Source: a virus (Duplodnaviria > Caudoviricetes). Taken from it: a stretch of DNA of 64,000 nt. Made by a program: the position numbers and the translations under genes. The DNA is taken from IMG/VR virus record IMGVR_UViG_3300027708_000013. One strand, given 5' to 3'. The stretch's first letter is position 1; each line of letters begins with the position of its first letter. Positions 1 through 61,307 of the stretch are shown in pieces. The notes under the pieces are model-generated. The model saw only the letters and a program-made list of their open reading frames with translations. It made no database searches and was not told the origin of the DNA.

Positions 1-1478
1 TCAGTTTTACCTGTGCCGGTGGGCCCTAAAAACAAAAAGTTGCCAATGGGCTTGTTGATTGATTTCAATCCAGCACGGCTGACATAGATCTTTTCCAATA
101 CAGTGTCCACTACCGATTCTTGTCCGTATAGGCGATTTTTAATATTGCTTTCTAAACTGTCAAGATTTTTAATTGACTCGGTGCCGATTTGATCCACTGG
201 GATTTTGGTAAATCTACTGATGACATCTACAATGTCACCGCGTTGTACACACCAATCAGTTTCACGTATTTTTAATCTAGCACAGGCTGAATCAATCAAA
301 TCAATGGCCTTGTCCGGCAATCGTTTATCTGTTTGATAACGTACACTCAAGTCCACAGCAGCATCAATAGCTGAGTCGTCAATGACGCCGCCATGAAATG
401 TTTCGAAGTGTGTGCGTAGGCCACGCAGTATATCTTTGGCCACAGCAGGTGTTGGTTCTTCCACTGTTAATCTATGGAAGCGACGCATGAGAGCACGATC
501 TTTTTCAAAACTTTGACTGTATTCTTCCCATGTGGTTGACGCAATAACTTTGATTTGACCTTTGGCCAAGGCTGGCTTGATCATGTTAGAAAAGTCTACA
601 TTGCTTTGGCTTCCGGCTCCGGCACCACGCATTTGATGTGCTTCATCAATAAACAATATGCATTTGCCTTGAGCAATCAAAGCGGCAACGACATCTTTGA
701 GCTTTTCCTCAAAGTCTCCGCGATACTTGCTGCCGGCCAATAGACTTCCAATGTCCAGGTTATAAACTGTATGGTCCCGCAAATAGTCAGGAACTGCTCC
801 ATCCACTATGTTTTTTGCCAAGCCTTCGGCAATGGCAGTTTTACCAACACCGGGATCACCAATTAGTAATATGTTTGATTTATTGCGTTTGGCCAACACC
901 TGTGCTATTTCATCAATCTCGTAATCTCTACCAATCACAGGATCAATTTTGCCCGCACGTGCCTGTGCATTCAAGTCGGTACAGTACTGTTCTAATGTTT
1001 CAGTAGATTTGATATTGACAGCACGGGCCTTACCACGCTTGGTGGAATAATTGTCATTGTAATAATCCAATACATCTTGACGATTGTCAAGTCCATATTT
1101 TAATAAAAAATAATGTGCGTAACTGTTGTGTTCGGCAAACACACTGATGTATAAATCAATCACCTGCATGGTGGATCTGCCACTGAACAGCACTTGAGTA
1201 AATGCACGATTAAACACACGTTCCAGTGCATTGGTTTTCTTGGGTTCTGTGAACTCCACAGCACTGACTAAGAATACCTGGTCGGATAGATAATTATCTA
1301 AATCGTTTTGTAATCCCTCAACATCTACGCCGTAACTATCTAAAAATTCACCAAACGGCTCATATGCGACTAGACTTTTTAGCAAGTGTTCCAAAGTCAC
1401 ATATTCGTGATTCAGTGCCCTGGCAGTGTCGCTGGCATTTTTAATAATTACTTCTATTTCAGGATTGGGTTGTATCAT
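1..1478 (-). CDS. clpA: ClpA-like AAA+ protease/chaperone ATPase subunit (3' end truncated by window edge)
   Basis: Manual translation from ATG at 1478: MIQPNPEIEVIIKNA...HEYVTLEHLL (Clp N domain), NBD1 Walker A GDPGVGKT, Walker B IDEAH, NBD2 Walker A FLGPTGTGKTE at the window edge. No ClpB middle domain is apparent. Confidence 0.9.
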   Translation of the reverse strand, partial: MIQPNPEIEVIIKNASDTARALNHEYVTLEHLLKSLVAYEPFGEFLDSYGVDVEGLQNDLDNYLSDQVFLVSAVEFTEPKKTNALERVFNRAFTQVLFSGRSTMQVIDLYISVFAEHNSYAHYFLLKYGLDNRQDVLDYYNDNYSTKRGKARAVNIKSTETLEQYCTDLNAQARAGKIDPVIGRDYEIDEIAQVLAKRNKSNILLIGDPGVGKTAIAEGLAKNIVDGAVPDYLRDHTVYNLDIGSLLAGSKYRGDFEEKLKDVVAALIAQGKCILFIDEAHQMRGAGAGSQSNVDFSNMIKPALAKGQIKVIASTTWEEYSQSFEKDRALMRRFHRLTVEEPTPAVAKDILRGLRTHFETFHGGVIDDSAIDAAVDLSVRYQTDKRLPDKAIDLIDSACARLKIRETDWCVQRGDIVDVISRFTKIPVDQIGTESIKNLDSLESNIKNRLYGQESVVDTVLEKIYVSRAGLKSINKPIGNFLFLGPTGTGKT

Positions 1479-1511
1479 CCGGTCTTCCAAGTTAGTGCCT
1501 CGTAAAGATAT

Positions 1512-2399: not shown

Positions 2400-2939
2400 T
2401 TAGGCCTTACCGGCTATCTTTTCTTGGCTACGTCCATAAGCAGCTAATCCCAACACAGCACCCATGGCAATGTGATACAATCCTGCACCTTGCAGTGTCA
2501 GTGGGCTCCACTGACTGGTCACTGATCCATGAAATACAGCCTGCAATAAACTCCATAATATTGGAAATACCACAAAGTCAGTGGTACAGGTAATCATGTA
2601 TATAACTGCCATCATGGGGCGCCATTTACTGTTGATAAAGTTGCCAAACCCATGGCTGGTTTCAATTGCAGAGGTGCCACCTTCTTGCATGGCCCCACCG
2701 GTACTGGCTAAATTGCTGTTGGCCTGTCCAGTGCCTGAGTAGTTATTGGTTTGAGTCATTGCACTGGAACTGGCACCAAACCCACTGCCAAAACCAGATG
2801 GAGTACTGCCAAATGACGAAGGAGCAACACTCATGCTGTTACCCATTGGCACACTTCCAAAGGCTGGAGCTGGTGTAGCGGGTACAGGTGCTACGGCTGT
2901 AGCGGCTGAGTTTGAATCTGATGGGTCTAGTTTTGGCAT
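2400..2939 (-). CDS. Putative holin (C-terminal transmembrane helices, long low-complexity N-terminus)
   Basis: KWRPMMAVIY...LGLAAYGRSQEK resembles the GTA-type 3TM holin family; last gene of the lysis cassette. Confidence 0.7.
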   Translation of the reverse strand: MPKLDPSDSNSAATAVAPVPATPAPAFGSVPMGNSMSVAPSSFGSTPSGFGSGFGASSSAMTQTNNYSGTGQANSNLASTGGAMQEGGTSAIETSHGFGNFINSKWRPMMAVIYMITCTTDFVVFPILWSLLQAVFHGSVTSQWSPLTLQGAGLYHIAMGAVLGLAAYGRSQEKIAGKA

Positions 2940-2955
2940 ATTTTTCCTTTTATTT

Positions 2956-3255
2956 TTATTTTACGGCATCCCAAATTTGTTTTTGTTCCCGATACCACTG
3001 TTGCCAAGATTCGTATTTTTGTTTTAGTATGTAGTACTCACCAAAATTGGCATTGGCATTTTCTAACAGATCGGTTAAGGTTTTTTTGTCTGCGGGCAAA
3101 GGAGTTAAATCATTTGCTGGTGCTGAGAGCTCTGCTGGAACCTTGGGCCACTGCATTTTTTGTGGACTGGTTGTAGAGCATCCAAGCAGTGTCAGACAAC
3201 CGACACTCAGCGTTAATACTGTCACGCTGTGCTTCAATTGCTTGATTGTTGGCAT
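2956..3255 (-). CDS. Putative o-spanin (Rz1-like lipoprotein)
   Basis: Lipobox LLGC, Pro-rich mature region, overlaps the 3' end of the upstream membrane gene. Confidence 0.7.
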   Translation of the reverse strand: MPTIKQLKHSVTVLTLSVGCLTLLGCSTTSPQKMQWPKVPAELSAPANDLTPLPADKKTLTDLLENANANFGEYYILKQKYESWQQWYREQKQIWDAVK

Positions 3256-3601
3256 TTGTGTTCTCCTTGATTATTTTTACTTCTTTGACAATTTTTTCTT
3301 TGATCACTGTGTTGACTTTCCCCGACTTGACTTCAGCCTCGGCCACTTTCTCTGCCATCGCTTCCAGTTCATGTTTCCAAACAGCAGTGACACCGGCGCT
3401 GCCCAACATAAAAACACCAAACAGCATAGTGGCAAATCCTAGATATTTAACAGCAACACCGGTGAGTTTTGCCTGCACAAAAGGAACAGCAGAAAGAAAT
3501 CCGCTGAAAAAATATGCAACAGCACCCAGTCCAGCAATTAACGCCCAGAACTCAGCGGGTATGTTGCCAATTATGTGTTGGATTATCCAGCCAAACATCA
3601 T
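3110..3601 (-). CDS. Putative i-spanin (Rz-like)
   Basis: N-terminal TM segments, coiled-coil periplasmic part, lies between endolysin and lipoprotein. Confidence 0.65.
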   Translation of the reverse strand: MMFGWIIQHIIGNIPAEFWALIAGLGAVAYFFSGFLSAVPFVQAKLTGVAVKYLGFATMLFGVFMLGSAGVTAVWKHELEAMAEKVAEAEVKSGKVNTVIKEKIVKEVKIIKENTNANNQAIEAQRDSINAECRLSDTAWMLYNQSTKNAVAQGSSRALSTSK

Positions 3602-4221
3602 GCACTCAATACTTGAACAGCGTGATGAAAACGTGCTGTGCGATCATCTAATCCCAATAATCCACCATTGATGACTCGAGTGGCATGTGCAACATCTCCA
3701 GCATCACTGATGGCATTTAATCCATGATGTTCCCAAAAGAAACAGGCCGATTCCACAGCACCTTCGGGTGTTTCACAATACTTTACACACTCGTCAAGTG
3801 CCATACCAATTTCTTTGGCAAACGCCACATAGTTGCTTTTGCCTGTAAGTTGTATCAAGCCACGACCGTGAAACTTCCAACCATCGCCCGATGCTTCGGG
3901 ACCATTGCCCATTCTATCACAGTAGGCACGATTGGCAATCTTTTCTGGATTGTGTTCGTATAATTTTGCTATGTCTGGGGGGAAACGCTTGGGCCATGTA
4001 CCGGTTAATCCAGAGGCACGATAGTTTAAATTTTCAGTAAGTGCTGTGTAGCCACCTGATTCATGTGCTGTTTGTGCAATAAACATGGCCACACGTGAAA
4101 CAGAAGTTATATTATATTTGGGGAGTTCTTTACTCAAGGCATTGTACCACTCGGTGATGTGTGGATTGTGTGGTAATAATTGAGCTAATTGATTGGCTGT
4201 AAATGTAAATTCAAAACTCAT
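3598..4221 (-). CDS. Endolysin, glycoside hydrolase family 19
   Basis: FIAQTAHESGG, ENLNY, RGRGLIQLTG-like (HGRGLIQLTGKSNY), TRVINGG motifs. Confidence 0.92.
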   Translation of the reverse strand: MSFEFTFTANQLAQLLPHNPHITEWYNALSKELPKYNITSVSRVAMFIAQTAHESGGYTALTENLNYRASGLTGTWPKRFPPDIAKLYEHNPEKIANRAYCDRMGNGPEASGDGWKFHGRGLIQLTGKSNYVAFAKEIGMALDECVKYCETPEGAVESACFFWEHHGLNAISDAGDVAHATRVINGGLLGLDDRTARFHHAVQVLSA

Positions 4222-20259: not shown

Positions 20260-21006
20260 TTAATAGCCAAATCTTGTTTTGTAAGTGGCATGTTCTGCCT
20301 GTATCTGTGCCAAGGTCAATTCTCCGTTCCACACTTTGACAAATCCCACATCCGCATCCACTTGTTCTGTGCTGGTAGTGGCATTTAAATATCTTCCAAA
20401 CAATCTCAATCCGTTGAATCCGTTGTTGGTAGTGCCAGTACCGTATGTGGCGCTGGGGGCTGTGTTGGTTGCTATGTAACTTTTTGCTTTGCTTGCACCA
20501 GCAGATCCACTATTAGTGAACCATATAAAATGCCAAGCAGTGTCTGCTGTGGTAGTGGTGCCGACAAAAGCATCACCATAGGCAACGTTCATTGATCCGC
20601 CATTGCCACTCCACAGGCCCATTAAAAAATCAGGTGTTGCTGAGTTAGCATTAAGTAACCTATTGATGGTACTTCCATTCCACTTGTAGGCCATACCCAC
20701 AGTAAATGCTTGTGTGCCACTGCTGTAGTCGGGACCAAAAGTCAAGAAGTCAGCGGTGCTGGCAGTGGTGACTCTAAACACACCACCATTGGCACTGTTC
20801 CACGAAATTCTAGGTGTGGGATTCACCACATTGATGGTGTAGGCACCTGTGCCTGCTATGGTACTGCCATTGACAGGAACAGCACTATAGTTGGCTGCAT
20901 CCAAATTAAGTACTAGGTTAGGTGCCGCTGATGTTGCTACTACCGCAGGAGTTTTGTAAATACGCCCGAGTGGAGATTGATACGCAGTAAATCTCGCTAG
21001 TTTCAT
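20260..21006 (-). CDS. LamG / concanavalin A-like virion protein
   Basis: Likely start MKLARF at 21006 (TAATG overlap); LVLNLDAANY...VGFVKVWNGELTLAQIQ motif. Confidence 0.7.
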   Translation of the reverse strand: MKLARFTAYQSPLGRIYKTPAVVATSAAPNLVLNLDAANYSAVPVNGSTIAGTGAYTINVVNPTPRISWNSANGGVFRVTTASTADFLTFGPDYSSGTQAFTVGMAYKWNGSTINRLLNANSATPDFLMGLWSGNGGSMNVAYGDAFVGTTTTADTAWHFIWFTNSGSAGASKAKSYIATNTAPSATYGTGTTNNGFNGLRLFGRYLNATTSTEQVDADVGFVKVWNGELTLAQIQAEHATYKTRFGY

Positions 21007-24000
21007 TATGCGTAGTTGCTCTGCTGTCCCAATATACGGTAGGAGCCGTTGTTTAGATTGATTAAACTGATGCTGATGACATCGGTGTTGCTGGCAGTGC
21101 CAGTGGGCACTGTGGCCCCGGCCCATCGTATGTTGCTGACTGTGCCGCCGGCAAACTGTATGTTGGCAATACGGTAGGGAGTAGCACCTTGGTCAACTAT
21201 CACAGTAAAGCCGGCAGTGGTAAAGGCCGTATTGCTGATGTTAACAATATTTGCTGTGACATTGGCAGTGAGTGTGGCATAGTACACTCCACCGTTGATG
21301 AAGTTAAGTGTTAGGTTACCACCTGTGTTGCTTACGTTGCTGTAAGTTTCGTAGTAAGAACCTTGTTGGAATGTGTTGCCCACCAATGTAGTAGTACCGG
21401 TATGGTATGTGTTTGCATTTACATTTAAATTACCACCAACTGCCAAGTTACCAGCAACACCGGCACCACCTGCCACATACAATGCACCTGCAGTTCCTAT
21501 AGTAGTTCCAGTTCCCACGGTTGTGTTACTCAACACCAAGCTACCCAGCTGAGCATTGCCAAATGTACCTGTGACATTGCTATTTGTTTCTGTGGCACTT
21601 ATCAAATATTGCAGTGTTCTTGTAGAGTTTTCCAATCCCAAGAATGCCAAACTGTCTACACCATTGTAGTAGTGCATACGTAGGCCCACGTCCTTACCAT
21701 CATCCACTGCCCAAGCGGCCAAGTTACCATAGGTGTGTAAATCTAATATGCTATCGTAAATTGTAACCTGTCCTGCATCAACAGCAAGGTTGCCAGTTAA
21801 AGAAGTAACACCGTTGACAGTGACATTACCTGTGTATGTTGCTGTGGTGCCAATTGCGTTACCGTAGTGTGCGCCGATTAAGTTACCGGCTGTGATGTTG
21901 GCTGTGGTTGATATAGTTGCTGTTGTCAAATAGGCACTGACATTGGTATTGCTATACGTTCCACTGCCAGCAGCAATGGTGGTTAAAATATTAACACCAT
22001 TGGCAAACAAGTAATTTGGAGCAATAACATTGCCGCCAATGGTGATGTTGCCAGCCACACCAGCTCCGCCTTTGACAACCAATGCACCAGAGTTAACGTT
22101 GGCACTAGTTGTAGTAGCTGGAATTACAATATTTCCTTCACTACCAATTCTTAAAGATTCAACAGCAACATTTGAACTATTTCTTATAGTAGTAACTGTG
22201 GCGTAAACTCCGGTTGAACTGTTGGTAAAATTCTCATCTGCGTATACATTTAATCCAGCACCGGAGTTGGCATTATATCCCGATAATCCATATCCTTTGA
22301 CAACAAAAAATCCCAATCTATCTCCCAACTGAACAGCCGATGGGACAGCGGTGGTTCCTCTGGCATGTCTAAGACTGATACCAGATGCTGTGGCTGTACC
22401 AAAACTATCTATACCTAGAACAGCATTTACAGCAGTGGCACCATTTATATGTAGAATAGCATTATTGTTAGATATAGGAGCATCAGTGGTTGCGTTGAGA
22501 GTAAGTATACTGTCAGCTGAAGCCAATGCATTGCCTAAACCCAATAATAAGTTGCCACGAATAGTGTGTAATGAATAATTATATGATCCAACATTGATAT
22601 TGCCCAGCACACCCATGCCACCATTCACCACCAATGCGCCGGTGGTGTTGTTGACCGGAGCAGTTCCTGGATTGTAAATGCTTACTGCAACGTTGGCAGT
22701 ATTGGCCCCACCAGCGATAAATTTGATATTGGTTCCCGGGGTAGCAGTACCAATGACTAAATTACCTCCAGGCGATCCACCGGTGATGTTGCCCTGTGCA
22801 TAAAGATAAGCATCATTGATGTTGAGCACTGTGCCCAAGCTGTTGTTGGGATTCAATCCGTTGTAATTGCTACCAGCAATGCCTAAATCAACAAAGTATG
22901 TGGTATCTGAGCCATTGTTGGCAGTGGCTATGTAATCAGTAGTGCTTTGATTTCCCAAACTGATATTTTGTATGTTTAGTTGAGAATAACTGTTGGAGTT
23001 GGTGGTAAATTGAGCTAGGTAGTAGGGAACTACAGAGTATCCAGACTGTAATCCAGCTGTGATGGGCTTAAAACCGGTCACCGGATCGCCCGACGGTGTG
23101 ATGTGATTGGCTGAAATATTACCTGTGTACACAGGCAAATAACTTGCCACTGTTGCGTTACTGTATCCGCTTACACTGTAAGTTGCATTGGCGTAGGTAT
23201 AAAAACTTCCAACATTGGCATCTAGGGTTTGAATACGTGTGTTGGCCGCAGTGACTTGTGAAGTTAAGGTGCCGGTTGCACTTTGCCAGTTTTGTGTATC
23301 AGCAGCGTTTACTTGATCCACATAATTTTTTAATGCTGTGTTGGCAGTGACTATTGCGGCATTGGCACCTTGTATCTGACTCAGTTGGGAAACAGCATTG
23401 GCATCAACATAGCTCTTCATTGCTGTGTTGGCTGTTACAATAGCGGCGTTAGCACCACTGATGCTCAAGTTGGCAGCAACAATGTTTGAACTCATTGCAA
23501 CATTCAGTGTGTTGACATAACTAACCACAGCCGAGTTAGCAGACACAATAGCGGCGTTGGCACCAGCAATGGCGTCACTTTGAACCCCGGCATTGGCAAA
23601 CAAGGTGGCAAGGTTACCGGCTTGAACAGCGGCATTGGCTGTCCATGCAGAAACAATGGCACTATCTCGTGCATCAACGTAAACTGTCATTGAAGAATTA
23701 GAACTATACACCTGCGAGTCAGTATAGGCTCTCAGTGTGACGTTGGCAGTGGAGATCTGTGTGTCTGTGTAGGATTTAAGTGCGGCATTGGCTGACACAA
23801 TAGCACTATTGGCACCAGAGACATTGCTGGCCATAGCAGAATTTAGTGTGTTGACATAGGCAACTACAGAGGAATTGGCAGTGACTATGGCACTGTTGGC
23901 AGCGGTAATTTGTGCCAACTGTGCAACTGCGTTGGCTGTCCACGCGGCAGTAACTGATGAAATTTGATCATTCACATAAGACGTTGTAGCAGTGTTGGCA

Positions 24001-24581
24001 TTGATGATGGCGCCATTGGCCCCTGTAATGCTGGCCTGTAATGCATTTATGTTTGATTGTTGACTGATGGCATTGCTGAATAGCGTGGCTGTGTTATTTT
24101 GCAAAGTATTGACATAAGTTTGCAAAGTGCTGATATTGGTAGTGGCCACACCTAAATTGGCATCCAATCTGGATATTTGTGCATTGGCCGCTGTGACATT
24201 GGCATTGACCGGTGCCAATGTTGTGCTGTTGATGTTGGCAGTGACTTGAGCAACAATAATATTGGAAATATTAGTGGCCAAATTGGCAGATACTTGATTG
24301 TAAACTGTGGTAGTGATGTTGGCCACGGCAGCGTTGGTATAGGTGTTGGCACCAATCAATCCACTGATCACATAACCATAAGGTACAGCACCCGACACAT
24401 CGCTGATGGTGAGTGATATGTTACCGGTTCTGTTTGCAACTGTTTGAACCGGAGTAGTTACCGGAGCACTGCCATTGGCAATGTTGGCAAAATTTAAGTT
24501 TATCTTTGTAAATGCGGTGCGTAGTGGATCACCTGTACCGTCGTCGGCTGTAGATCCGATATTAACATTAGCAAAAGCCAT
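21006..24581 (-). CDS. Long tail fibre protein with Ala/Asn-rich coiled-coil repeats
   Basis: DDGTGDPLRTAFTKIN N-terminal anchor, repeated GANAAIV(T/S)AN units, GALVVxGGxGV repeats. Confidence 0.8.
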   Translation of the reverse strand: MAFANVNIGSTADDGTGDPLRTAFTKINLNFANIANGSAPVTTPVQTVANRTGNISLTISDVSGAVPYGYVISGLIGANTYTNAAVANITTTVYNQVSANLATNISNIIVAQVTANINSTTLAPVNANVTAANAQISRLDANLGVATTNISTLQTYVNTLQNNTATLFSNAISQQSNINALQASITGANGAIINANTATTSYVNDQISSVTAAWTANAVAQLAQITAANSAIVTANSSVVAYVNTLNSAMASNVSGANSAIVSANAALKSYTDTQISTANVTLRAYTDSQVYSSNSSMTVYVDARDSAIVSAWTANAAVQAGNLATLFANAGVQSDAIAGANAAIVSANSAVVSYVNTLNVAMSSNIVAANLSISGANAAIVTANTAMKSYVDANAVSQLSQIQGANAAIVTANTALKNYVDQVNAADTQNWQSATGTLTSQVTAANTRIQTLDANVGSFYTYANATYSVSGYSNATVASYLPVYTGNISANHITPSGDPVTGFKPITAGLQSGYSVVPYYLAQFTTNSNSYSQLNIQNISLGNQSTTDYIATANNGSDTTYFVDLGIAGSNYNGLNPNNSLGTVLNINDAYLYAQGNITGGSPGGNLVIGTATPGTNIKFIAGGANTANVAVSIYNPGTAPVNNTTGALVVNGGMGVLGNINVGSYNYSLHTIRGNLLLGLGNALASADSILTLNATTDAPISNNNAILHINGATAVNAVLGIDSFGTATASGISLRHARGTTAVPSAVQLGDRLGFFVVKGYGLSGYNANSGAGLNVYADENFTNSSTGVYATVTTIRNSSNVAVESLRIGSEGNIVIPATTTSANVNSGALVVKGGAGVAGNITIGGNVIAPNYLFANGVNILTTIAAGSGTYSNTNVSAYLTTATISTTANITAGNLIGAHYGNAIGTTATYTGNVTVNGVTSLTGNLAVDAGQVTIYDSILDLHTYGNLAAWAVDDGKDVGLRMHYYNGVDSLAFLGLENSTRTLQYLISATETNSNVTGTFGNAQLGSLVLSNTTVGTGTTIGTAGALYVAGGAGVAGNLAVGGNLNVNANTYHTGTTTLVGNTFQQGSYYETYSNVSNTGGNLTLNFINGGVYYATLTANVTANIVNISNTAFTTAGFTVIVDQGATPYRIANIQFAGGTVSNIRWAGATVPTGTASNTDVISISLINLNNGSYRILGQQSNYA

Positions 24582-24638
24582 AGAAATCTGTCCTCGTATG
24601 CTGTATTTAGCATATTCAACTAGATCTGTTTACAGGAG

Positions 24639-24965
24639 TTAAAAGGGATTGAAGCTGGAACCGCAACCACAAGTGGTTTGTGCTTGGGGATTGTCAATGC
24701 TGAATGTGGCGCCCATGATGTCATCTCGAAAGTCTATTCTGGCACCTTGTAAATACTGCCCGCTCATGCTGTCTACCAACACAGTGACGCCATTTACATC
24801 CAAGCTCCAGTCATCTTCGCCTACTGCTTCATCCAGGGTGAACCCATAACTCATGCCTGAACAGCCACCACCTTGTACAAACACACGCAGTTTTAATCCA
24901 GGAGTATTTTCTTCGGCCAGTATTTCGCGAATTCTTACTTCGGCTGCTGGGGTAATGGTTATCAT
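24639..24965 (-). CDS. A-type Fe-S cluster carrier (ErpA/IscA/HesB family)
   Basis: [22 protein letters not shown]. Confidence 0.95.
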
Positions 24966-26080
24966 GTTAAAGATCTTTCTAATTCTGTTAGTATACCAAA
25001 TTGTTGTTGAATTACATCAGATGATAATTTTCTATGTTTGACGATTTGCTTCATTTTAGTAACAAATTCATTTCGTAACAATGTATTATATTGAGTACTT
25101 ATTATAGTTTGACCCAACTCAGCTACGAATTTTTTTTGAGTGTTAGTAATGACATATTGATTTATCTGTTGTGTTAGTAGTTCAACTATACTGTGTTTTT
25201 CTTGTTCATTCAATATAAACCAAGATAACCAACTTGGCCCCACTAGGTTAGTTATTCTAGTTTTTATTTTATATCGATTTAGATATTCCAGTGTGGGTAC
25301 AAGATTTTGTATATTTAAAGTTTGAACAACGTAATTAAAATTAGTACGTGATGGTCGTAATTCTTTTAATAATACTTTTACATTTGATTCAAATGTGTGC
25401 CATTTTGCAGGATACCGCATAAACTCGTAACTTGAGCCTATGCCGTCCGCACTGATTTGTAATTCTAGTTTGGATATTTTTTTTAATTTTTCAATATGCG
25501 AGGACAAAATAACAGTGCTGTTGGTGACTACTCGAAATGGAATATTTTTTTCAATAACAAAATCCATAATTTTTAAATTTCCTTTTGTTAGAAAAAATTC
25601 GCCTCCTATTACACTGATTGATTCTATATTATCTGCTGATTTGAGTATATCAATACAATCTTCGGCAATATTAAATTCTTTGATGCTATCAAACCCAATT
25701 TTTTCAATAGCATATCTTTCTTGTGCCAATGCTGTACTGGAATTTGGGCCGCACATAAAACATTTTAAATTGCAAACATTTGAAGGAAAAAGTTCAAATC
25801 GTGTTCCGTAATCTTTAGTTGTATCAGGCCACATTATATTAGCATAATTGCGTAAACTAGTTTGATTTTGTTCTTCCTGTTGTTTGCAACTGATGCATCC
25901 TGCAGGCCATTCTGTTGCTTTCTTTAAATTTTGTAATTCTAGGCTAGAATGATATTCTTCCAAGGTTGGGTATATATTGTTTGTTTTGTAAACACAGCAG
26001 GGAAGAATTTTGATACCAGACAAAACATTACCTTCCACTCGGACAGTGTGATGAATAGACGAGCAATAAAAATTAGTCAT
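24962..26080 (-). CDS. Radical SAM protein with N-terminal Cys cluster
   Basis: CNLKCFMC motif, IGGEFF, ISADG; AT-rich. Confidence 0.88.
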
Positions 26081-26109
26081 ATTATGATTGTTTTTTTACA
26101 GTGACTATG

Positions 26110-26655
26110 TTATAGTCTATGGTTCACCACAGTCCAGTCGATGATTCGCCAGATGTTGTTGAGATATTTGCTTTTGTTTGATCCGTAATCAGGTTGGTAA
26201 GCATGCTCCCACATGTCCACCAATACTGCTATGTCAGTTCTTTTTGCGTGGTTGCGTATGGTTCTAATCTTGCCGTTTTTACTAAGATAGCACCAGCCTG
26301 AACCCTGTATCTTCATAGCTTCGGTTTTGAATTCCTGTTTGAACGATATATAGTTATCAAAGTGACGATCAATCAAATCCAACACACGACCAAAAGGTCG
26401 ATTGCTGCCGGGAGATTTAAATTGGCTGAACCAAATATCATGTAGAAAAGCTCCGGCTTCGTTGAAACTTCTATCACCTTCATGATTGTTGAATCTTTCC
26501 ACATATCCGTGATACAGTTTACCGTAATGAATGTCGATGTTTCGCTTGGTCAACACTGGAGCAAGATCTCCAACACCGTAGGGTAATTTTACTTGTTTGA
26601 GCACTACCGGAGCAGTGGCTTCTAATAGGTCAATAGTTTCGCGAATTGTGTTCAT
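26110..26655 (-). CDS. sod: Fe/Mn superoxide dismutase with short N-terminal extension
   Basis: HYGKLY, FLHDIWF, GSGWCYL, DMWEHAY retain all four metal ligands; likely start ATG 26655. Confidence 0.9.
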   Translation of the reverse strand: MNTIRETIDLLEATAPVVLKQVKLPYGVGDLAPVLTKRNIDIHYGKLYHGYVERFNNHEGDRSFNEAGAFLHDIWFSQFKSPGSNRPFGRVLDLIDRHFDNYISFKQEFKTEAMKIQGSGWCYLSKNGKIRTIRNHAKRTDIAVLVDMWEHAYQPDYGSNKSKYLNNIWRIIDWTVVNHRL

Positions 26656-26675
26656 ATAGTATTTATTGCCATTGG

Positions 26676-27005
26676 TTAAGTATCCGGCCAATCTCTATAC
26701 AGTGCATGTTGTATATTACCTTTAACAAACTGGTTGAAACTACGATGTTTATCTTCAAGTTCACCTTCCAACGGTGCTACTCTCTTGAAAGCATTTTCCA
26801 ATTGAGCCATATCTGTAAACTCCATCATAATATGCCATTCTGGTAAATCTTGTATACTACGAAATCCCATTTTACAACGTGTAATCCTATAACTAACCAT
26901 TTTATTTTCTATAATTAAATGATTAAGAAATCCCTTCATATTATTGACCCAAACAGTGTCGGTAATATCGCCTTCTTTGTCTGCCCAAATATGATATATA
27001 TCCAT
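26676..27005 (-). CDS. Small conserved hypothetical protein
   Basis: MDIYHIWAD...LPEWHIMMEF...QLENAF; start overlaps the amidinotransferase end. Confidence 0.6.
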   Translation of the reverse strand: MDIYHIWADKEGDITDTVWVNNMKGFLNHLIIENKMVSYRITRCKMGFRSIQDLPEWHIMMEFTDMAQLENAFKRVAPLEGELEDKHRSFNQFVKGNIQHALYRDWPDT

Positions 27006-28162
27006 TATCTTCTCTCTGGAAAGTAATCTTTTAATGTACCTTCTCTGTGTATATCGCTGGTAATACAATGAAGTCCACCGTCCCAAAAATATCTATGTCT
27101 AAAATTAAGCACATGCGGGGTTATTCCGTGTCGCTCAAACGCATCAAATACATTTTTGTTATAATTATTACATATTACATTGTTTTCATCGATGACTAAC
27201 ATGTTTACATCAAATACAGTTTCTTCTACATAACCAACCCAATGATGTAACCATGATTCTACAAAATTAGTAAAATCATCATTTAATTCTTCCCCTGGTA
27301 CCCACCACTTGCCTCGATTTTTCCCCTTTAATCTTAAAAATGCACCAACTTTGCCCCAACTTTGCCCGGGTAAGTAGACAACTTCCCATCCAGGAAAAGT
27401 ATCGGCATAAGTTGGTATATCTTTAAGACTTACGATTAGTCCCGGTTTTACTGGGCAGTAAGTGCCATCGGAGTGTCCTCCAGTATTAATGATATGACAT
27501 CGATAGTCGGAGAACATATTGGTATATATATCTTTGTTAATATTTTGGTTTGTTATTTTGGTACCCGAGTCAGTACCAAAATATAAATCTTTCCCTATCC
27601 TGGTGATCATTGCTGAATTTATACCTGGTTGATTTTCAATAACTAAATTTGTGCTTTTAATTTTTTCAATTATATCTTTCCATGCATGCATCTCACGTGG
27701 GAGATATTTAAAATTCCTATTAAACATTAATAATTCTTGCTTAATAGTGTCGGGTAACAAATTAAATTCTTTATCTGACGTGCGAGGATTATTTGGCCAA
27801 TCTGCTCCTTTCCACTGATTCCACGAATCTAAGAAAAGTGTATTTGACGTATTATCTATTATATAAAATGTCGACCCAATCATTGCTGAATAATCACGAG
27901 GTGTCATTGGAGGAGGCATAATTTTTCCATCTTCCCCTAGATAGTCTACGTAGTTGTCAGAGACTGATGGTCTCCATACTTCAACTCCAAACAATTCAAG
28001 TAAAGTAATTAATTTTTGAAAATCTTCTTCGGTTTCTTGAGCAATTCTTTCCATTACTGTGCGTACACGATTGTTAGTAATAAATTTATAAAACTCAGGC
28101 CTATAGGTGCGTCCAACTAAACAAACCTTTAATGGATCCCAATGTTGATATACATTATACAT
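27005..28162 (-). CDS. Amidinotransferase (glycine/inosamine-phosphate amidinotransferase-like)
   Basis: WDPLKVCLVG, PRD, GHSDG, FDVNML, WDGGLHCIT catalytic motifs. Confidence 0.88.
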   Translation of the reverse strand: MYNVYQHWDPLKVCLVGRTYRPEFYKFITNNRVRTVMERIAQETEEDFQKLITLLELFGVEVWRPSVSDNYVDYLGEDGKIMPPPMTPRDYSAMIGSTFYIIDNTSNTLFLDSWNQWKGADWPNNPRTSDKEFNLLPDTIKQELLMFNRNFKYLPREMHAWKDIIEKIKSTNLVIENQPGINSAMITRIGKDLYFGTDSGTKITNQNINKDIYTNMFSDYRCHIINTGGHSDGTYCPVKPGLIVSLKDIPTYADTFPGWEVVYLPGQSWGKVGAFLRLKGKNRGKWWVPGEELNDDFTNFVESWLHHWVGYVEETVFDVNMLVIDENNVICNNYNKNVFDAFERHGITPHVLNFRHRYFWDGGLHCITSDIHREGTLKDYFPERR

Positions 28163-28587
28163 TATGCTGGTCCTAATATTTCGAATCCTGTTATTTCTGT
28201 TTTATATTCATCAGCTCCGCCAAGATACAAATAACTATAACCTAAAGATTTGTACAAGGCGCATTCATGTTTCATAGTTTCTATTCCAAGTCTTATTTTT
28301 GGATCAGCATAGTCCCAAGCAAATTGAACACATTCAGCATTATCTTGGTCGTATTTGCGTACAAGGCTAAATGCCACCAATGCATCATTTATATAGTACC
28401 CAAGTATATCTGTGTTGCTGTCTAAATACTGACTATCAAATATAGGCATGACACTTTTAAACTTTTTGTAACGACAATATTTTAAGTATATAATGTTTAA
28501 TTTATCGATATTGGGATCTGTAATATACTTCCAATTATCCAGTTGTTTGTAATTGGTTTTAAATAGATCAATTCTAGCGTATTTCAT
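28162..28587 (-). CDS. GNAT-fold protein resembling the arginyl/leucyl-tRNA protein transferase C-terminal domain
   Basis: YYINDALVAFS...FAWDY...LGIETMKHECALYKSLGYSYLYLG. Confidence 0.55.
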   Translation of the reverse strand: MKYARIDLFKTNYKQLDNWKYITDPNIDKLNIIYLKYCRYKKFKSVMPIFDSQYLDSNTDILGYYINDALVAFSLVRKYDQDNAECVQFAWDYADPKIRLGIETMKHECALYKSLGYSYLYLGGADEYKTEITGFEILGPA

Positions 28588-29083
28588 TGGGTCTCCAATT
28601 TACTACATAATCTAAATTTTCTTTTGACCATGTATGATAATACCCTTTTTCTTTTAGTTGATGTGAGGCTGTATTTAATTTATTTAAGTTTTGTACCAGC
28701 AATAACCCGCACAGGCCAAAATTCATTTTTACATTGTTAACGAATTCTAGTGAATCTGGGTGATCTTCTAATACCACAATATCTTTTTTCATCAAGGCTT
28801 GGTTTATACCATCTACAATAATAGCAAGGGAATCGGTTGCAATTTCATAATGATCAAAGCAGAAAATTATAACATCTTTGTTATTTAATAAATCTATGTT
28901 ATCAACTATGTCAAACAATAAATCCTTTGCTTGACTAAATTTAATTTCTATTTTTTTATTGATTCTGGCTTGTCGTGCATAAGGACACGGGGCCCACTCT
29001 CCCAATGCAGAATTAGGCACTTCTACAAATTCTTGTAGCCAATGGTTTAATTTTTCTGTAATTAATTGATTATCCAATGGCAT
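28574..29083 (-). CDS. Hypothetical protein (DUF1415-like)
   Basis: WLQEFVEVPN...PCPYARQAR N-terminus; HPD motif. Confidence 0.45.
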   Translation of the reverse strand: MPLDNQLITEKLNHWLQEFVEVPNSALGEWAPCPYARQARINKKIEIKFSQAKDLLFDIVDNIDLLNNKDVIIFCFDHYEIATDSLAIIVDGINQALMKKDIVVLEDHPDSLEFVNNVKMNFGLCGLLLVQNLNKLNTASHQLKEKGYYHTWSKENLDYVVNWRPNEIR

Positions 29084-29112
29084 ATTAAACTGTTTTAATT
29101 TAATAATTCTTT

Positions 29113-29331
29113 TTATTTGGTTCTGTAAACAATACGGCCGCGATTTAAATCGTACGGACTCATTTCTACATCAACACCATCACCTAATAATATGCGTATA
29201 TTATTTTGTCTAAGCCTGCCACCTATAGTGGCCAATACAGTGTGATTGTTTTCTAACACTACTCTAAACATGGCATTGGGCAGTACTTCTTCCACTCTAC
29301 CAGTCATTTTGATAATATCTTCTTTTGACAT
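29113..29331 (-). CDS. infA: Translation initiation factor IF-1
   Basis: [22 protein letters not shown]...[26 protein letters not shown]. Confidence 0.97.
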
Positions 29332-29334
29332 GCG

Positions 29335-29535
29335 TTAGTGTAGCTCTACCTGACGCATTCGATCTGTCTCGACATTTTGTAACAGAACTCGATTTCCCTG
29401 TGCCAGTTCTTGTTCAAAAAAACTAGCCAACCCAATGCTTCTGCGTATCACCTCGGCTACATCGGTACCACGAGTCTTTGCCAATTTGGTCACAGTGTCG
29501 CTGAGTTCTTCACTCAATTCCAATTTAATTTTCAT
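29335..29535 (-). CDS. Ribbon-helix-helix DNA-binding protein
   Basis: KIKLELSEEL..TVTKLAK.RG...AEVIRRSI pattern. Confidence 0.65.
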   Translation of the reverse strand: MKIKLELSEELSDTVTKLAKTRGTDVAEVIRRSIGLASFFEQELAQGNRVLLQNVETDRMRQVELH

Positions 29536-29543
29536 GCTTGCTT

Positions 29544-29936
29544 TTATCCTCGTCTCATCTTACTTATGTCAATTGCCTCTTCTTGACTAAAAACAGGAAC
29601 GCCATTGCTTTTGTGCAGTGTGGATATTCCCAGAACTTTTGATCCGGTATAGGTTTGATCTGACTTTTTGGTACAGGCTGTCCATCCTGTGTCTCTACTG
29701 GCAATGTAAGGAGTTTCTCTGCCGGGAGGAATCTTGGGACCACTGGTTAAAACTCCTGAGGTCATGGCACGTTGACGTCGACGTGCTTGATCTGCGATGC
29801 CCTGTTGTTTTAGGAAAGCCTGCCAGTCTCGGTCACGCTGTTCTGCTTCACGTTTTTGTTCGGCACTGGCCCATTTGCGTGGACCTTTTTTCCTACCGGT
29901 GGTTGTGAGTGCTGGGTGTGCTAGGTGCATGGTCAT
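29544..29936 (-). CDS. Basic hypothetical protein
   Basis: Likely start MTMHLAHP, 6 nt after a -10 box; C-terminal TLHKSNGVPV. Confidence 0.6.
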   Translation of the reverse strand: MTMHLAHPALTTTGRKKGPRKWASAEQKREAEQRDRDWQAFLKQQGIADQARRRQRAMTSGVLTSGPKIPPGRETPYIASRDTGWTACTKKSDQTYTGSKVLGISTLHKSNGVPVFSQEEAIDISKMRRG

Positions 29937-29942
29937 AAGTGT

Positions 29943-29971
29943 AGTATAGTTGAAGTTGAATAAAAAGTCAA
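29943..29971 (-). promoter_or_regulatory. sigma70-type promoter
   Basis: TTGACT-17-TATACT. Confidence 0.7.
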
Positions 29972-30330
29972 GTTGTTTTTTCAGCAATCTTGACTGGTTG
30001 AAAATCTGGTCCCATGAACAAGATTTGTTGATCTTCTATCAGGAATACGTGTCGTTGCCAACGCATGCACAACACCGTTCGTATTTCTTCCAGTGTGCGT
30101 CCCTGTGCAATAAATGTATTGTCACTGGTATCGTACCAAAAATAAACACCATCCAAGTGCTCAACAGTGACAGCATGCACATGGTCTTGAATCTTTTTTA
30201 TTGCATCACTGTCTTGCTGAATTGAGTCAACCAATTTCACATGTACAAAAGTGGCTAAAATGCGAAACATAACATACCAAACTGCCACCTTCAATAGAAA
30301 CACTACAAATTCTTGTAAAAAGTCCAGCAT
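29968..30330 (-). CDS. Hypothetical protein with N-terminal TM segment
   Basis: 120 aa ORF with AGGATGG RBS. Confidence 0.6.
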   Translation of the reverse strand: MLDFLQEFVVFLLKVAVWYVMFRILATFVHVKLVDSIQQDSDAIKKIQDHVHAVTVEHLDGVYFWYDTSDNTFIAQGRTLEEIRTVLCMRWQRHVFLIEDQQILFMGPDFQPVKIAEKTT

Positions 30331-30358
30331 ACCATCCTTTTAATTGTTGTTAATAGTA

Positions 30359-30387
30359 ATTATACAAGATTGTGATTTTTTGGTCAA
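30359..30387 (-). promoter_or_regulatory. sigma70-type promoter
   Basis: TTGACC-17-TATAAT. Confidence 0.75.
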
Positions 30388-31221
30388 CTAAATGTCAAAT
30401 CCCACAGTGGCATCAAAGGCATCGGCCACTGCTTCGTACCCAAAATAACCACGTGGGTTGCATAGAACTCGAGTAGTGCCAATCATGTAATCAAATGGAT
30501 CATGAGTATGCCCATGTGTCCAAAATTGAATCTGTGGATGACTGATGATAAAATCATCTAAATTACTGCTGTATCCACCATTCATCAAGGTGTCATGTTG
30601 ATACACAGGATGTGTGCTGAGTCTGCTGGGTGCATGGTGTGTGGCCACTACATACTTTTTATCAGGATTGTTTTCCACCACAGCACGAATGTATTCAAGA
30701 CTTTTTCTATGTTGACGTGCAGTGTATTCTGGTGTCAGTTTGTGATAGATATTGCGAACCGGATCCAGCATGGTGATGGCTCGGTAGTCACTCATGTTGA
30801 ATCGCAGATGATGTTCAGTCATGGGGTCACCGCTGTTGCAGTCGGTCCATAGTGTAGCACCCACAAAAGTCACATCGTCAATGGTGCGGCTTTCATTCTC
30901 CAATAAATGCACATTGTCGGGCAACTGATCTAAGATATGGGCTCCAGTTTTGTGAAACTGCATACGATAATGCTCGTGATTGCCCATGATGTAGATCACT
31001 TCTCTATACTTGCGGCTACACTCCTCTTCAATGAATCTATAGAATCTGTCGGGTCTGCGATCAGCACGTTCGTCAGGCATCATGACCATGTTGGGATCGT
31101 ACATATCACGTTTCAAGTTCTTGGCTTCCAAGATATCGCCACCCAGTATCAGCACATCGCCACCAGGCAATGTCAAATCACTGAACTCTAAATGCAGATC
31201 TGAAATTTGTGTCACACGCAT
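30388..31221 (-). CDS. Calcineurin-like metallophosphoesterase
   Basis: SDLHLE, GGDI, GNHE, THHAP, HGHTH. Confidence 0.93.
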   Translation of the reverse strand: MRVTQISDLHLEFSDLTLPGGDVLILGGDILEAKNLKRDMYDPNMVMMPDERADRRPDRFYRFIEEECSRKYREVIYIMGNHEHYRMQFHKTGAHILDQLPDNVHLLENESRTIDDVTFVGATLWTDCNSGDPMTEHHLRFNMSDYRAITMLDPVRNIYHKLTPEYTARQHRKSLEYIRAVVENNPDKKYVVATHHAPSRLSTHPVYQHDTLMNGGYSSNLDDFIISHPQIQFWTHGHTHDPFDYMIGTTRVLCNPRGYFGYEAVADAFDATVGFDI

Positions 31222-43303: not shown

Positions 43304-44269
43304 TTATTCTATGTTTTTGCTCACGTTTTTAAGCAATTTTAAGGTCTGGGATTGGGTGTTTGCCAACTGCTCAAACGTACCGCCCGGGTTTATAATACCA
43401 ATTGCTTTTAATCTTTCAGCATACACTGGATTTTTAAGTTCTTGATTTATTAAATTGTTGATACGTGCTCTGGCCGAAAGAGGTGTATCTGCAGGTGCAT
43501 ACACGCCATACCAAATGTTTAAGCCCAGTTCTGGATGTAAATTGGACAACACTGGTACAGTTACGGCAGGATTCAATTCATGCACCAGTCTAGAACCTTC
43601 AGGTGTCAGCGCCGCAATGATTTTAATTTTACCCGACATCCAAGCCGGACGCATGGTGCTCAACACATCAAAGGCAAAGTCTACATTGCCGCCTATTAGG
43701 TCTGTCAGTTGTGGTGCACCACCTTTGTAATTGATAATCTGTGGCATAGGTAATTTTTCCAACTTGGCCCACAGTGTAAAGAGATTTGCAGTGTTTTTAT
43801 TCCAGTAGGCCACATTGAACCGTTGAGGATTTTTACGCACATAATCTTTTAGTTCTGCATAGGTGTTGACAGCACTGTTGGCTGGAACAGCCAACACCAT
43901 GGTACTGATGCCCAAGGGTACTACAGGATCAAAACTAGATTCTGTATATTCAATGCCGTCTGATCGAGTCTTGAATGCTATGTTGCTGTCCAAGAATCCA
44001 GTGCCGCCCATGAACAAGGTATGTCCATCAGGCTTGGCCCGTGCCACAAAGTTTGCGGCTATGACAGTGTCTGCCCCGGGTCGATTTACAACCACAGCTC
44101 GCCATCCGTTGTTGGCAAACATTTCCTCGACGATACGAGCAACACGATCACTGTTACCACCCGGCGGGTATGCCACCACAATCTCAATGGGTCGCTTGGT
44201 TGGGTCAAACTCAGCCACAGCTGACAGTGATGTCAATAATGCTATGGCGATGATAATTCTTTTAAACAT
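43304..44269 (-). CDS. Bug/TctC family substrate-binding protein (second copy)
   Basis: Signal peptide, RPIEIVVAYPPGG, VVNRPGAD, KPDGHTL, YKGGAPQLTDLIGGNVD. Confidence 0.9.
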   Translation of the reverse strand: MFKRIIIAIALLTSLSAVAEFDPTKRPIEIVVAYPPGGNSDRVARIVEEMFANNGWRAVVVNRPGADTVIAANFVARAKPDGHTLFMGGTGFLDSNIAFKTRSDGIEYTESSFDPVVPLGISTMVLAVPANSAVNTYAELKDYVRKNPQRFNVAYWNKNTANLFTLWAKLEKLPMPQIINYKGGAPQLTDLIGGNVDFAFDVLSTMRPAWMSGKIKIIAALTPEGSRLVHELNPAVTVPVLSNLHPELGLNIWYGVYAPADTPLSARARINNLINQELKNPVYAERLKAIGIINPGGTFEQLANTQSQTLKLLKNVSKNIE

Positions 44270-46590: not shown

Positions 46591-46618
46591 AAAAAACCCG
46601 CCGAAGCGGGTTCTGCTA
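46591..46618 (-). terminator. Intrinsic terminator after tmRNA
   Basis: AACCCGC-TTCG-GCGGGTTTTTT. Confidence 0.85.
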
Positions 46619-46921
46619 TTTTTGGTAATAAGGTATAACTACCCCAGAGATCATGCCGCTAGGGCGTAAACCTCATCATTAGATGCGTTTGCATTTATCG
46701 ATTTGCTTGATTTACAGTCATCGCCTACTGTGTTGCCGTCTCCATTACCTACCCCTGTCGAAACCATGGCTGGCCCATCAGAAGAAAACTCAGATCCTTT
46801 CACGGTTGGCTCCATTACTGGTTGGCCGCAGTATGCATCCTGCTGAATTTTCTTTTGGTGGACCAGGCGGGAGTCGAACCCGCGTCCAGAAGTCCTTCAC
46901 TTTGAAGGAATTACAACAATT
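46591..46921 (-). ncRNA. ssrA: Circularly permuted (two-piece) tmRNA
   Basis: T-arm and acceptor 3' end GGGTTCGACTCCC...CTGGTCCACCA (ending 46856) precede the 5' end GGGCCAG (46776). The acceptor stem has a G3-U70 pair. Tag ORF 46691-46650 encodes ANASNDEVYALAA*. Confidence 0.92.
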
Positions 46922-46924
46922 CTT

Positions 46925-47071
46925 TTAATTATAACCACGTATGACATTGTTGTCAATGGGTGGATTTGATCTTGCCAATTCTCGTTTAACAGCTTCTTGA
47001 TGTTGCTGTTCTTTTTTCTGCTTGTTCTGTTCAAACTTCTGAAGTATCACAACTTCTTCTTTGTGTGGCAT
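46925..47071 (-). CDS. Small charged helical protein (48 aa)
   Basis: Manual translation MPHKEEVVILQKFEQNKQKKEQ...GYN*, downstream of TAAATA. Confidence 0.5.
   Translation of the reverse strand: MPHKEEVVILQKFEQNKQKKEQQHQEAVKRELARSNPPIDNNVIRGYN
46928..46956 (-). promoter_or_regulatory. Perfect consensus sigma70 promoter for tmRNA
   Basis: TTGACA-17-TATAAT. Confidence 0.88.
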
Positions 47072-58803: not shown

Positions 58804-59913
58804 ATGAACGTTAGCATCTACACACCTGAGTCCTCGGCTCAGGTGTTTCATTATCATCTCAATCGTTGTGTAGGCATTGCGGCTGGCACTTGGAATTACT
58901 GTCACAACATTGATATTTTTTTATCCCAACCCGGGCCACGCATGGCCTGTTTTCAAATACCTTATCCATACGACAGCACTGTGGAACAACAAATAGATCA
59001 AATATATGATCACGTGGATCAAATCTTAATCTTGGGCGCCGAGCTACATCCTAGAACTGTGGATTTTATTCACCGTTACGATAGATCCAAGATCAGCTGG
59101 TTCATTTGTGGAATGTTGGATCGTCCCCTGCAACACAGTAGAACATATCCATTTTTAGATTGGTTTATATCCACTGTACACTTTTACAAAAATGTCAGAC
59201 CCAGTACACTGTACTCTTTAAATTTTAATTGCTCCAAACCGTTGCAGTTTGATGCCTTGCTGGGACGCAAAAAACCACATAGAGATATTGCCTATCAATA
59301 TTTAATTGATCATGACATGATGGATCAAGGTGTGGTAACGTATCTCAATGATGTTTCGGATCAGTTCAACGGCCGTGACCCCGCACGATGGCAGTGGGAA
59401 TCCAAGGGCCTGGCCGGTCATGCAGGTGTACAATGGACAGTGGAACGAGTTGAGTACTACGGGCATAGGATCAGCCTAAGTCAAATTATTCCCATTGATA
59501 TATACAATCAAACTGCCTACAGCCTGGTATGCGAAACTAATTTTGACAATCACTTTGTATTTTACACAGAAAAAACTGTCAAGCCCATTATAGCTCGACG
59601 CCTGTTCGTCATGCTGGGCAATCGATCAGCTTTGGCCAGATTGAGAGATCTGGGATTCCAAACCTTTGACGGCATCATTGATGAAAGTTATGATGATATG
59701 GAATTAACCACTGAGCGACACACAGCCGCAATGCAACAACTTGAATGGTTGTGCCAACAGCCTCAGGCAGAAATCTTAGCAAAAATACAATCTCGCTTGG
59801 ACCACAATTTTAACTTGATGATGTCTCGAGATTGGTATCAACAATTTGCTGAGCCATTTGCAAGAACATTTGTTGAGATTGATCGTACAGTTGGCCGGAA
59901 CCTAAATTCTTAG
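58804..59913 (+). CDS. Hypothetical protein, possibly glycosyltransferase-like
   Basis: LVCET...FYTEKTVKPI...LG...LRDLGFQTFDGIIDESYD motif. Confidence 0.55.
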   Translation: MNVSIYTPESSAQVFHYHLNRCVGIAAGTWNYCHNIDIFLSQPGPRMACFQIPYPYDSTVEQQIDQIYDHVDQILILGAELHPRTVDFIHRYDRSKISWFICGMLDRPLQHSRTYPFLDWFISTVHFYKNVRPSTLYSLNFNCSKPLQFDALLGRKKPHRDIAYQYLIDHDMMDQGVVTYLNDVSDQFNGRDPARWQWESKGLAGHAGVQWTVERVEYYGHRISLSQIIPIDIYNQTAYSLVCETNFDNHFVFYTEKTVKPIIARRLFVMLGNRSALARLRDLGFQTFDGIIDESYDDMELTTERHTAAMQQLEWLCQQPQAEILAKIQSRLDHNFNLMMSRDWYQQFAEPFARTFVEIDRTVGRNLNS

Positions 59914-60892: not shown

Positions 60893-60923
60893 ACCGCTAG
60901 TATAGCAGTATATGAATTTCTGG

Positions 60924-61307
60924 TCAAGCAATAAACCCTTGTCCAGTTATCTCATGATACCAAGGGTAAAATGGACCGGGCATAACAAAATACCACAGCC
61001 CCGGTTGGTCAATCCAAGTGGTAGGGGTGCTGGCAAGATGCAAATAACGTGGTAGTACTTCCAATCCATTTACACTAAATTCAACAATTTCCAATGCACC
61101 ACGACATGGTGCCACTATTTCTACGCCAATGCTGACGGGCTCTAACAGATCAAATTTGAAATCAAATAGATTTTCTCCTGCGCCAGTGTACAGATCCATG
61201 GCGTTAATTCTACAATGACTATAAGGTTTGCCGTGACCGACAATGCGTAAGCGTACCAGCAATTGGTCAGCAGTGTCAATAGCCGTAATGTCTGAGAAAT
61301 TGTTCAT
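60924..61307 (-). CDS. Hypothetical protein
   Basis: ...PFYPWYHEITGQG; overlaps the radical SAM gene end. Confidence 0.55.
   Translation of the reverse strand: MNNFSDITAIDTADQLLVRLRIVGHGKPYSHCRINAMDLYTGAGENLFDFKFDLLEPVSIGVEIVAPCRGALEIVEFSVNGLEVLPRYLHLASTPTTWIDQPGLWYFVMPGPFYPWYHEITGQGFIA

Follow-up and report, generated by a model that had tools for sequence, protein, structure and literature searches.

A cassette of four minus-strand genes (26676-29083) from a giant uncultured phage recurs, in changing gene order, across many viral contigs. We analyzed it in a 64,000-nucleotide stretch of viral DNA (IMG/VR record IMGVR_UViG_3300027708_000013; Duplodnaviria, Caudoviricetes), hereafter called the window; the longest phage contig encoding these exact proteins measures approximately 341 kb. 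The genes encode a putative haem oxygenase (P169), a GNAT-fold transferase (GNAT141), an amidinotransferase homologue (AmT385), and a DUF6614 protein (Table 1). Their association greatly exceeds chance, and P169, the GNAT, and DUF6614 form its constant core. Tentatively, we read the module as a short pathway that tailors a small compound, arginine-derived or aminoacylated, a reading that we consider quite possible without regarding it as secure.

To place the cassette in context, 80 viral contigs were retrieved via the amidinotransferase and 80 via DUF6614, which is encoded on at least 594 viral contigs, and the neighbouring genes were labelled by tblastn and iterated hidden Markov models. Genes for P169 and the GNAT were present within four genes of DUF6614 in approximately 69 of 79 DUF6614-retrieved loci, and the amidinotransferase joined these three in approximately 39 of the 79. 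In the 80 amidinotransferase-retrieved loci, P169 was detected in 41 to 46, the GNAT in 34 to 38, and DUF6614 in 25 to 27. The observed orders (AmT, amidinotransferase) were P169-GNAT-AmT-DUF6614, P169-GNAT-DUF6614-AmT, DUF6614-AmT-P169-GNAT (with the GNAT on the opposite strand), GNAT-DUF6614-P169, and P169-AmT-GNAT-DUF6614, and the flanks of the cassette varied between contigs. This combination of permuted gene order and differing flanks points to selection on adjacency, and thus to functional coupling, rather than to inherited synteny. An earlier note on this DNA, made from the sequence alone, had paired the amidinotransferase with the GNAT. The two do co-occur elsewhere, as the neighbourhood analysis of viral contigs confirmed, but the amidinotransferase is not the core partner of the GNAT: the constant partners are P169 and DUF6614, and the amidinotransferase, found in about half of the cassettes, is a frequent add-on.

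Outside the complete cassette the amidinotransferase occurs in several settings. Some phages carry a P169-amidinotransferase pair without the GNAT, and in the remaining amidinotransferase loci the enzyme stands alone amid replication/recombination or other unrelated genes; the neighbours of these lone copies (Mre11/Rad50-like, DnaB-like, UDP-sugar dehydrogenase, 2OG oxygenase) showed no shared theme. In a quickly built tree, lone amidinotransferases were intermixed with those linked to a cassette. In addition, a single 6-kb metagenome contig encodes a protein in which a P169-like domain is naturally fused to an amidinotransferase (P0200, L081:3778-5496, 572 amino acids) and which is 50% identical to AmT385 over 409 aligned positions; upstream of the fusion lie a separate P169-like gene (2844-3338) and then a gene for a 148-amino-acid protein (3335-3781). 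In cassettes without the amidinotransferase, the GNAT gene directly adjoins that of DUF6614, frequently overlapping it. Such cassettes also carry, after DUF6614 and with overlapping stop and start codons, a gene for a conserved protein of 320 to 372 amino acids (L090:5330-6352; likewise in L082, L096, L140, and L156), which had no match in Pfam or among PDB sequences and may be an alternative fourth cassette member. The idea that this gene (approximately 340 codons) encodes a divergent amidinotransferase was rejected, as hhalign found no relation. In some phages a different gene, for 284 to 299 amino acids, separates P169 from the GNAT (L082:3665-4564, L096:3713-4576, L144:3697-4551); the one product that scored gave weak matches to the methyltransferase families PrmA and Cons_hypoth95 (E approximately 3e-3).

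In the window, the four genes are tightly coupled. The P169 and GNAT141 genes overlap by 14 nucleotides, as read from the junction sequence, the GNAT141 and AmT385 genes have 1 nucleotide in common (TAATG), and the last A of the AmT385 stop codon TAA is the first base of the DUF6614 ATG. The GC content of the stretch 24639-29083 is 0.36-0.37, versus 0.40-0.47 in its flanks. The open reading frames and overlaps given in the earlier note were all recovered on the minus strand at the same coordinates, and the AT-richness that it reported is likewise real. Its gene unit stood in part: the coupling of P169, GNAT, and amidinotransferase genes was correctly seen, but the DUF6614 gene was overlooked and P169 was treated as unannotated.

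To assess P169, its AlphaFold model (predicted local distance difference test, pLDDT, 94.5) was compared with known structures. An exhaustive structural alignment put AglA alone on top (Z 7.7, 152 of 169 residues; next match 4.4), and a second comparison ranked four AglA entries first (Z 7.7-7.9, root-mean-square deviation 3.9-4.1, 151-155 of 169 residues; next match 4.7), although a Z of approximately 7.8 is within the range reachable by unrelated best matches and is not decisive by itself. AglA, the prototype of the YqcI/YcgG enzymes, N-hydroxylates guanidines by means of a haem with a thiolate ligand (Cys44) and has a four-stranded sandwich fold (PMC12866846). Within the P169 family (63 sequences), W15, C33, P34, and W152 are invariant; Cys33-Pro34 is located after the first helix and is followed by Tyr or Phe. 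The P169 sequence here, L-G-x-W-x-P-C-P, retains the Cys-Pro of the motif of cytochrome P422 (formerly DUF6875) but neither its Arg nor its spacing. Cytochromes P422 are thiolate-haem Trp hydroxylases of 180 to 300 amino acids with an RxGxVCP motif, which need ferredoxin and ferredoxin reductase and fold compactly into an alpha/beta sandwich whose sheet has four strands (bioRxiv 10.64898/2025.12.11.692455). DUF6875 (PF21780) is the best Pfam match of P169 and was matched by 25 of 35 P169 relatives (best 9.2e-5, N-terminal 50 positions only); P422 likewise has a Cys-Pro, which lies in its haem-binding region, and a similar sandwich. Unlike in P422, the substrate-binding motifs of that family were not seen in P169 by eye, and the solved P422 structure was not among the structural matches. 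Based on the AglA-like fold, the Cys-Pro, and the DUF6875 similarity, we read P169 as a minimal relative of the thiolate-haem oxygenases; on the strength of sequence and model it is a probable haem oxygenase of the 'sandwich' type and would be expected to bind haem.

Other searches with P169 returned little. Foldseek against PDB gave nothing, the P169 profile matched no PDB sequence, and a shape-based atlas search found viral hypothetical proteins only. An hhalign comparison of the P169 profile with a single YqcI/YcgG sequence gave no match, and PF08892 (YqcI_YcgG) was not found in one complete related phage genome. The family itself is large, comprising 1079 representative clusters at E <= 1e-3.

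GNAT141 is best placed by its relatives. ATE_C (PF04377) was the sole Pfam family that they matched consistently (29 of 35, best 2e-9) and is precomputed on many database relatives of the protein; the GNAT family profile, run against solved chains, found nothing but ATE1 below E 0.1 (E 4.6e-6). These matches uphold the suggestion of the earlier note that GNAT141 is ATE-like and not an ordinary acetyltransferase. The comparison of structures that it had proposed was less discriminating. With the GNAT141 model (pLDDT 95.1), Foldseek recovered KlAte1 (E 2.8e-5, TM 0.67-0.70 by query) as well as the ATE1 enzymes of yeast and human, so that the GNAT core does superpose on ATE1; the top matches were A-PGS/MprF, KlAte1, ATE1, and Sbb17, but the acetyltransferases WecD and VipF scored similarly. 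As the fold matches some acetyltransferases about equally well, the assignment of GNAT141 rests on sequence and not on fold. Together with ATE1 and Bpt, the protein has the ATE_C sequence motifs and the GNAT core fold; unlike them, it is a bare 141-amino-acid core, devoid of ATE_N and its cysteines. From its family resemblance we consider that GNAT141 probably uses aminoacyl-tRNA, and its net charge gives no hint on the use of such a donor. Longer phage forms (222 to 226 amino acids) are encoded on the strand opposite P169 (L078:5307-5972, L011:5306-5971, L058:4820-5497, L060:2524-3192, L064:2123-2791) and carry extensions other than ATE_N, namely a 48-amino-acid N-terminal one (without CxxC) and a 35-amino-acid C-terminal one, both lacking in GNAT141.

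The identity given to the amidinotransferase in the earlier note was supported. As a single sequence, AmT385 matched AGAT with an E-value of 7e-13 (phmmer); its family profile did so with 1.6e-25 and found HsvA, SxtG, and StrB1 too, the similarity extending over the whole length. D90, H230, D232, and C366, invariant in 37 relatives, align to AGAT D170, H303, D305, and C407, so the phage members retain the nucleophilic Cys, the His, and the two Asp residues that bind the guanidinium in these enzymes. AmT385 matched no Pfam or NCBIfam model, and its sole PHROG match was phrog_25854, a label without a function. We conclude that AmT385 is a homologue of the AGAT/StrB1-type amidinotransferases, with amidino transfer from arginine as the predicted activity. 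The amidinotransferase gene is present in only a few of 50,697 cultured-phage records; one of these is S-SCSM2R, whose virion preparation contained a protein carrying the annotation glycine amidinotransferase (PMC12801897).

By analogy, the closest known logic is that of the AglC/AglA pair. In argolaphos production by Streptomyces monomycini, AglC requires ArgRS and tRNA (an Arg-tRNA-dependent ligation), and AglA then N-hydroxylates the guanidine (PMC12866846). By prediction, the phage set would likewise combine a tRNA-dependent transferase with a small oxygenase of the thiolate-haem 'sandwich' kind whose target is an arginine guanidine, and among known structures only AglA clearly matches P169. 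In the pathway that we envisage, the transferase would join the amino acid of a charged tRNA to an amine by an amide bond, the amidinotransferase would make or move a guanidino group, and P169 would hydroxylate an N-H (or C-H) with O2 and electrons of the host ferredoxin type. The argolaphos system differs in being bacterial and phosphonate-linked and in having neither an amidinotransferase nor DUF6614; moreover, AglA (243 amino acids) is a true PF08892 member, a model that P169 did not match.

Several observations weigh against a small-molecule pathway of this kind, in addition to the limited force of the Z score given above. On the side of P169, its DUF6875 score is below the gathering cut-off (17.3 bits against 24.5), neither it nor its relatives matched PF08892, and the hhalign alignment of its profile with the YqcI/YcgG profile, although colinear and placing Cys33 on the FPC cysteine (YcgG proteins are labelled 'FPC/CPF motif-containing' in JGI annotation), is weak (probability 2.4%, E 0.019). 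P169 is also approximately 70 residues shorter than AglA, and no counterparts were identified in it for the residues with which AglA holds the propionates of the haem. GNAT141 scored 21.3 bits for ATE_C against a cut-off of 25, has no ATE_N domain, and is not basic overall (isoelectric point, pI, 5.8); AglC, furthermore, is probably of a GNAT type different from ATE_C, the AglC candidates of the argolaphos cluster matching PF13480 or COG3146. In AmT385, which like the other phage members has low identity to the solved enzymes, Asp254 of the AGAT triad is replaced by Asn182 (Asn in 30 of 37 relatives, Asp in 1) and the carboxylate-binding Arg322 by Ile. Such a Cys-His-Asn triad could nevertheless be functional, as it is in papain. 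At the level of the module, no transporter, ligase, or carrier gene accompanies the set, the GNAT and DUF6614 genes were absent from the 50,697 cultured-phage records searched, and a small-molecule pathway leaves the extreme conservation of DUF6614 and its stand-alone bacterial copies unexplained.

DUF6614 is by far the most conserved member, with a mean column identity of 81% versus 38-48% for P169, the GNAT, and the amidinotransferase. The protein matched PF20319 at 77.7 bits against a cut-off of 25; its profile found no match in PDB, and a feature-based atlas search returned DUF6614 and DUF6974 only, none with a known function or structure. Alphaproteobacteria encode homologues that stand alone, in unrelated contexts. 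In the cultured alphaproteobacterium Ponticaulis profundi, for instance, a homologue with 47% identity (L165:6001-6327) lies between the rimM and acyl-CoA dehydrogenase genes, and a true YqcI/YcgG gene is present at another place in that genome (L168:1477-2163). The conserved DUF6614 N-terminus, MDIYH.W, is identical in these bacterial homologues, which have no adjacent GNAT; it therefore looks structural and not like an acceptor site, and the N-terminal Asp as an ATE acceptor was rejected on this ground. A role of DUF6614 as a basic tRNA adaptor was rejected too, as the protein is acidic (pI approximately 5.3). The anti-Druantia protein Druad1 (44 amino acids) was considered as a DUF6614 member, but its authors found no BLAST homologues and the label is probably spurious.

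The conservation of DUF6614 bears on an alternative that we consider unlikely but worth weighing, namely that the module modifies proteins. The GNAT would then add a tRNA-borne amino acid to a protein N-terminus or side chain, P169 would oxidize the target, either ahead of this transfer or following it, and the amidinotransferase would turn a protein amine into a guanidine, with DUF6614 as adaptor or target, thereby altering the stability (in an N-degron-like manner) or activity of host or phage proteins. An identity of 81% would fit a whole surface constrained by several partners, and the adjacency, often overlap, of GNAT and DUF6614 genes where the amidinotransferase is absent agrees with this, but the structural appearance of the DUF6614 N-terminus speaks against it. 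The transferase itself favours a protein substrate: ATE1 and Bpt, the sole sequence relatives of the GNAT, act on proteins. The other two enzymes do not, since the known relatives of P169 (AglA and P422) use free amino acids or small conjugates and the substrates of all solved amidinotransferases are small molecules. In bacteria, ATE/Bpt-type transferases feed Clp-dependent N-degron pathways, and the window does encode a ClpA/B-like AAA+ protein (Clp_N, AAA, AAA_lid_9; 3-1490, minus strand, running off the window end), although 27 kb from the cassette. We regard as improbable a further idea in which the P169-GNAT-DUF6614 triad would be a new kind of phage machine: an amino-acid-derived group would be built or edited on DUF6614, or passed via it, giving a tRNA-fed, haem-oxygenase-tailored scaffold or effector directed against a conserved host target, with the amidinotransferase optional.

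The translation-related genes near the cassette, for an IF-1 homologue (29113-29331) and a transfer-messenger RNA (tmRNA; 46591-46970), bear on another proposal, that an aminoacyl, guanidino, or N-hydroxy group is placed on phage DNA or tRNA for counter-defence or translational takeover. Large phages often hypermodify their DNA, and GNAT-fold enzymes such as Mom can do so. Nevertheless, no nucleotide-binding, glycosylase, kinase, or DNA-binding domain accompanied the cassette in the loci examined, all four proteins are acidic overall, and we know of no member of these families that acts on nucleic acid. Nucleic-acid modification thus appears to be a long shot.

Returning to the small-molecule tailoring pathway, the module is carried by hundreds of uncultured large aquatic phages, given the count of DUF6614 contigs above. 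If the reading is true, phages run a tRNA- and haem-dependent tailoring chemistry that was previously known solely in bacterial antibiotic pathways. The non-P450 thiolate-haem oxygenases, a newly recognised group, would gain a minimal (169-amino-acid) member, a minimal (141-amino-acid) ATE-type transferase would be added, and DUF6614 would have its first functional context. The small size and confident models of the proteins make these claims directly testable in vitro.

Table 1. Genes of the cassette and its downstream neighbours (window coordinates).
Feature	Position	Strand	Description
P169	28574-29083	-	169 amino acids; thiolate-haem-oxygenase-like; AglA (YqcI/YcgG) fold, weak DUF6875 similarity
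GNAT141	28162-28587	-	141 amino acids; single-domain ATE_C-like (ATE1/Bpt-type) transferase, without ATE_N
AmT385	27005-28162	-	385 amino acids; AGAT/StrB1/HsvA/SxtG-type amidinotransferase homologue
DUF6614 protein	26676-27005	-	109 amino acids; Pfam PF20319
Fe/Mn superoxide dismutase homologue	26110-26655	-	neighbour outside module; 181 amino acids from ATG
Twitch-domain radical SAM protein	24962-26080	-	neighbour outside module
ErpA-type A-type Fe-S carrier	24639-24965	-	neighbour outside module

Downstream of the cassette lie genes for a superoxide dismutase (SOD), a radical SAM protein, and ErpA. The SOD homologue matched a PDB Fe-SOD with an E-value of 4.8e-27 and retains the metal-ligand motifs; its gene has its ATG at 26655 and its stop at 26110, within an open frame that extends to a TTG at 26691. 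The radical SAM protein matched NF033640 at 177 bits (cut-off 170) and ErpA matched NF010147 at 144 bits (cut-off 117). The earlier note had counted all three as parts of the pathway. In its fullest form, this would make the seven genes from 29083 to 24639 one pathway in which ErpA loads the radical SAM enzyme and SOD protects it. All seven genes are on the same strand, with gaps of 20 nucleotides between DUF6614 and SOD and 29 nucleotides between SOD and the radical SAM gene; in a scan of 24000-30500, the coding (minus) strand was free of terminator-like sites, and promoter-like sites were not in excess. The overlap of ErpA with the radical SAM gene by 4 nucleotides (ATGA) also makes local sense. 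The neighbourhood data, however, already contradict a seven-gene unit, which we consider very improbable. SOD was near the cassette in 8 of 80 amidinotransferase loci and ErpA in 7 of 80, all close relatives; in these 7 to 8 loci the order is cassette-P147-IF1-SOD-ErpA, without a radical SAM gene between SOD and ErpA; its position there is particular to this phage. A radical SAM relative was present in 4 of 80 amidinotransferase loci and near approximately 12 of 80 DUF6614 loci, at varying positions, and, being no more frequent near the cassette than would be expected for these phages, the protein was rejected as a member. In the close relatives, IF-1 is downstream of the cassette and beside SOD, but here the cassette is on the other side of IF-1. 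This change of position relative to IF-1, SOD, and ErpA indicates that the cassette moves as a unit, and SOD, the radical SAM protein, and ErpA are not borne out as pathway parts. A second radical SAM protein, weakly matching the same PHROG family, is encoded at 61276-62583 (minus strand) of the window.

Upstream of the cassette are genes for an RHH protein and for the IF-1 homologue, the latter directly adjacent (72 amino acids, minus strand, PF01176 at 5e-25). Directly downstream of ErpA, the minus strand encodes a 1191-amino-acid protein (21006-24581) without a match in Pfam or PHROG; in close relatives, short stretches of this protein reappear behind ErpA. The tmRNA, also on the minus strand, is of the betaproteobacterial type (RF01850, 157.8 bits); the permuted tmRNA model was matched too, and its tag, as read by ARAGORN, is ANASNDEVYALAA. 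The tmRNA type hints at a betaproteobacterial host. Elsewhere on the minus strand of the window are genes for a TctC-like solute-binding protein (43304-44269) and a UvdE UV endonuclease (59810-60931).

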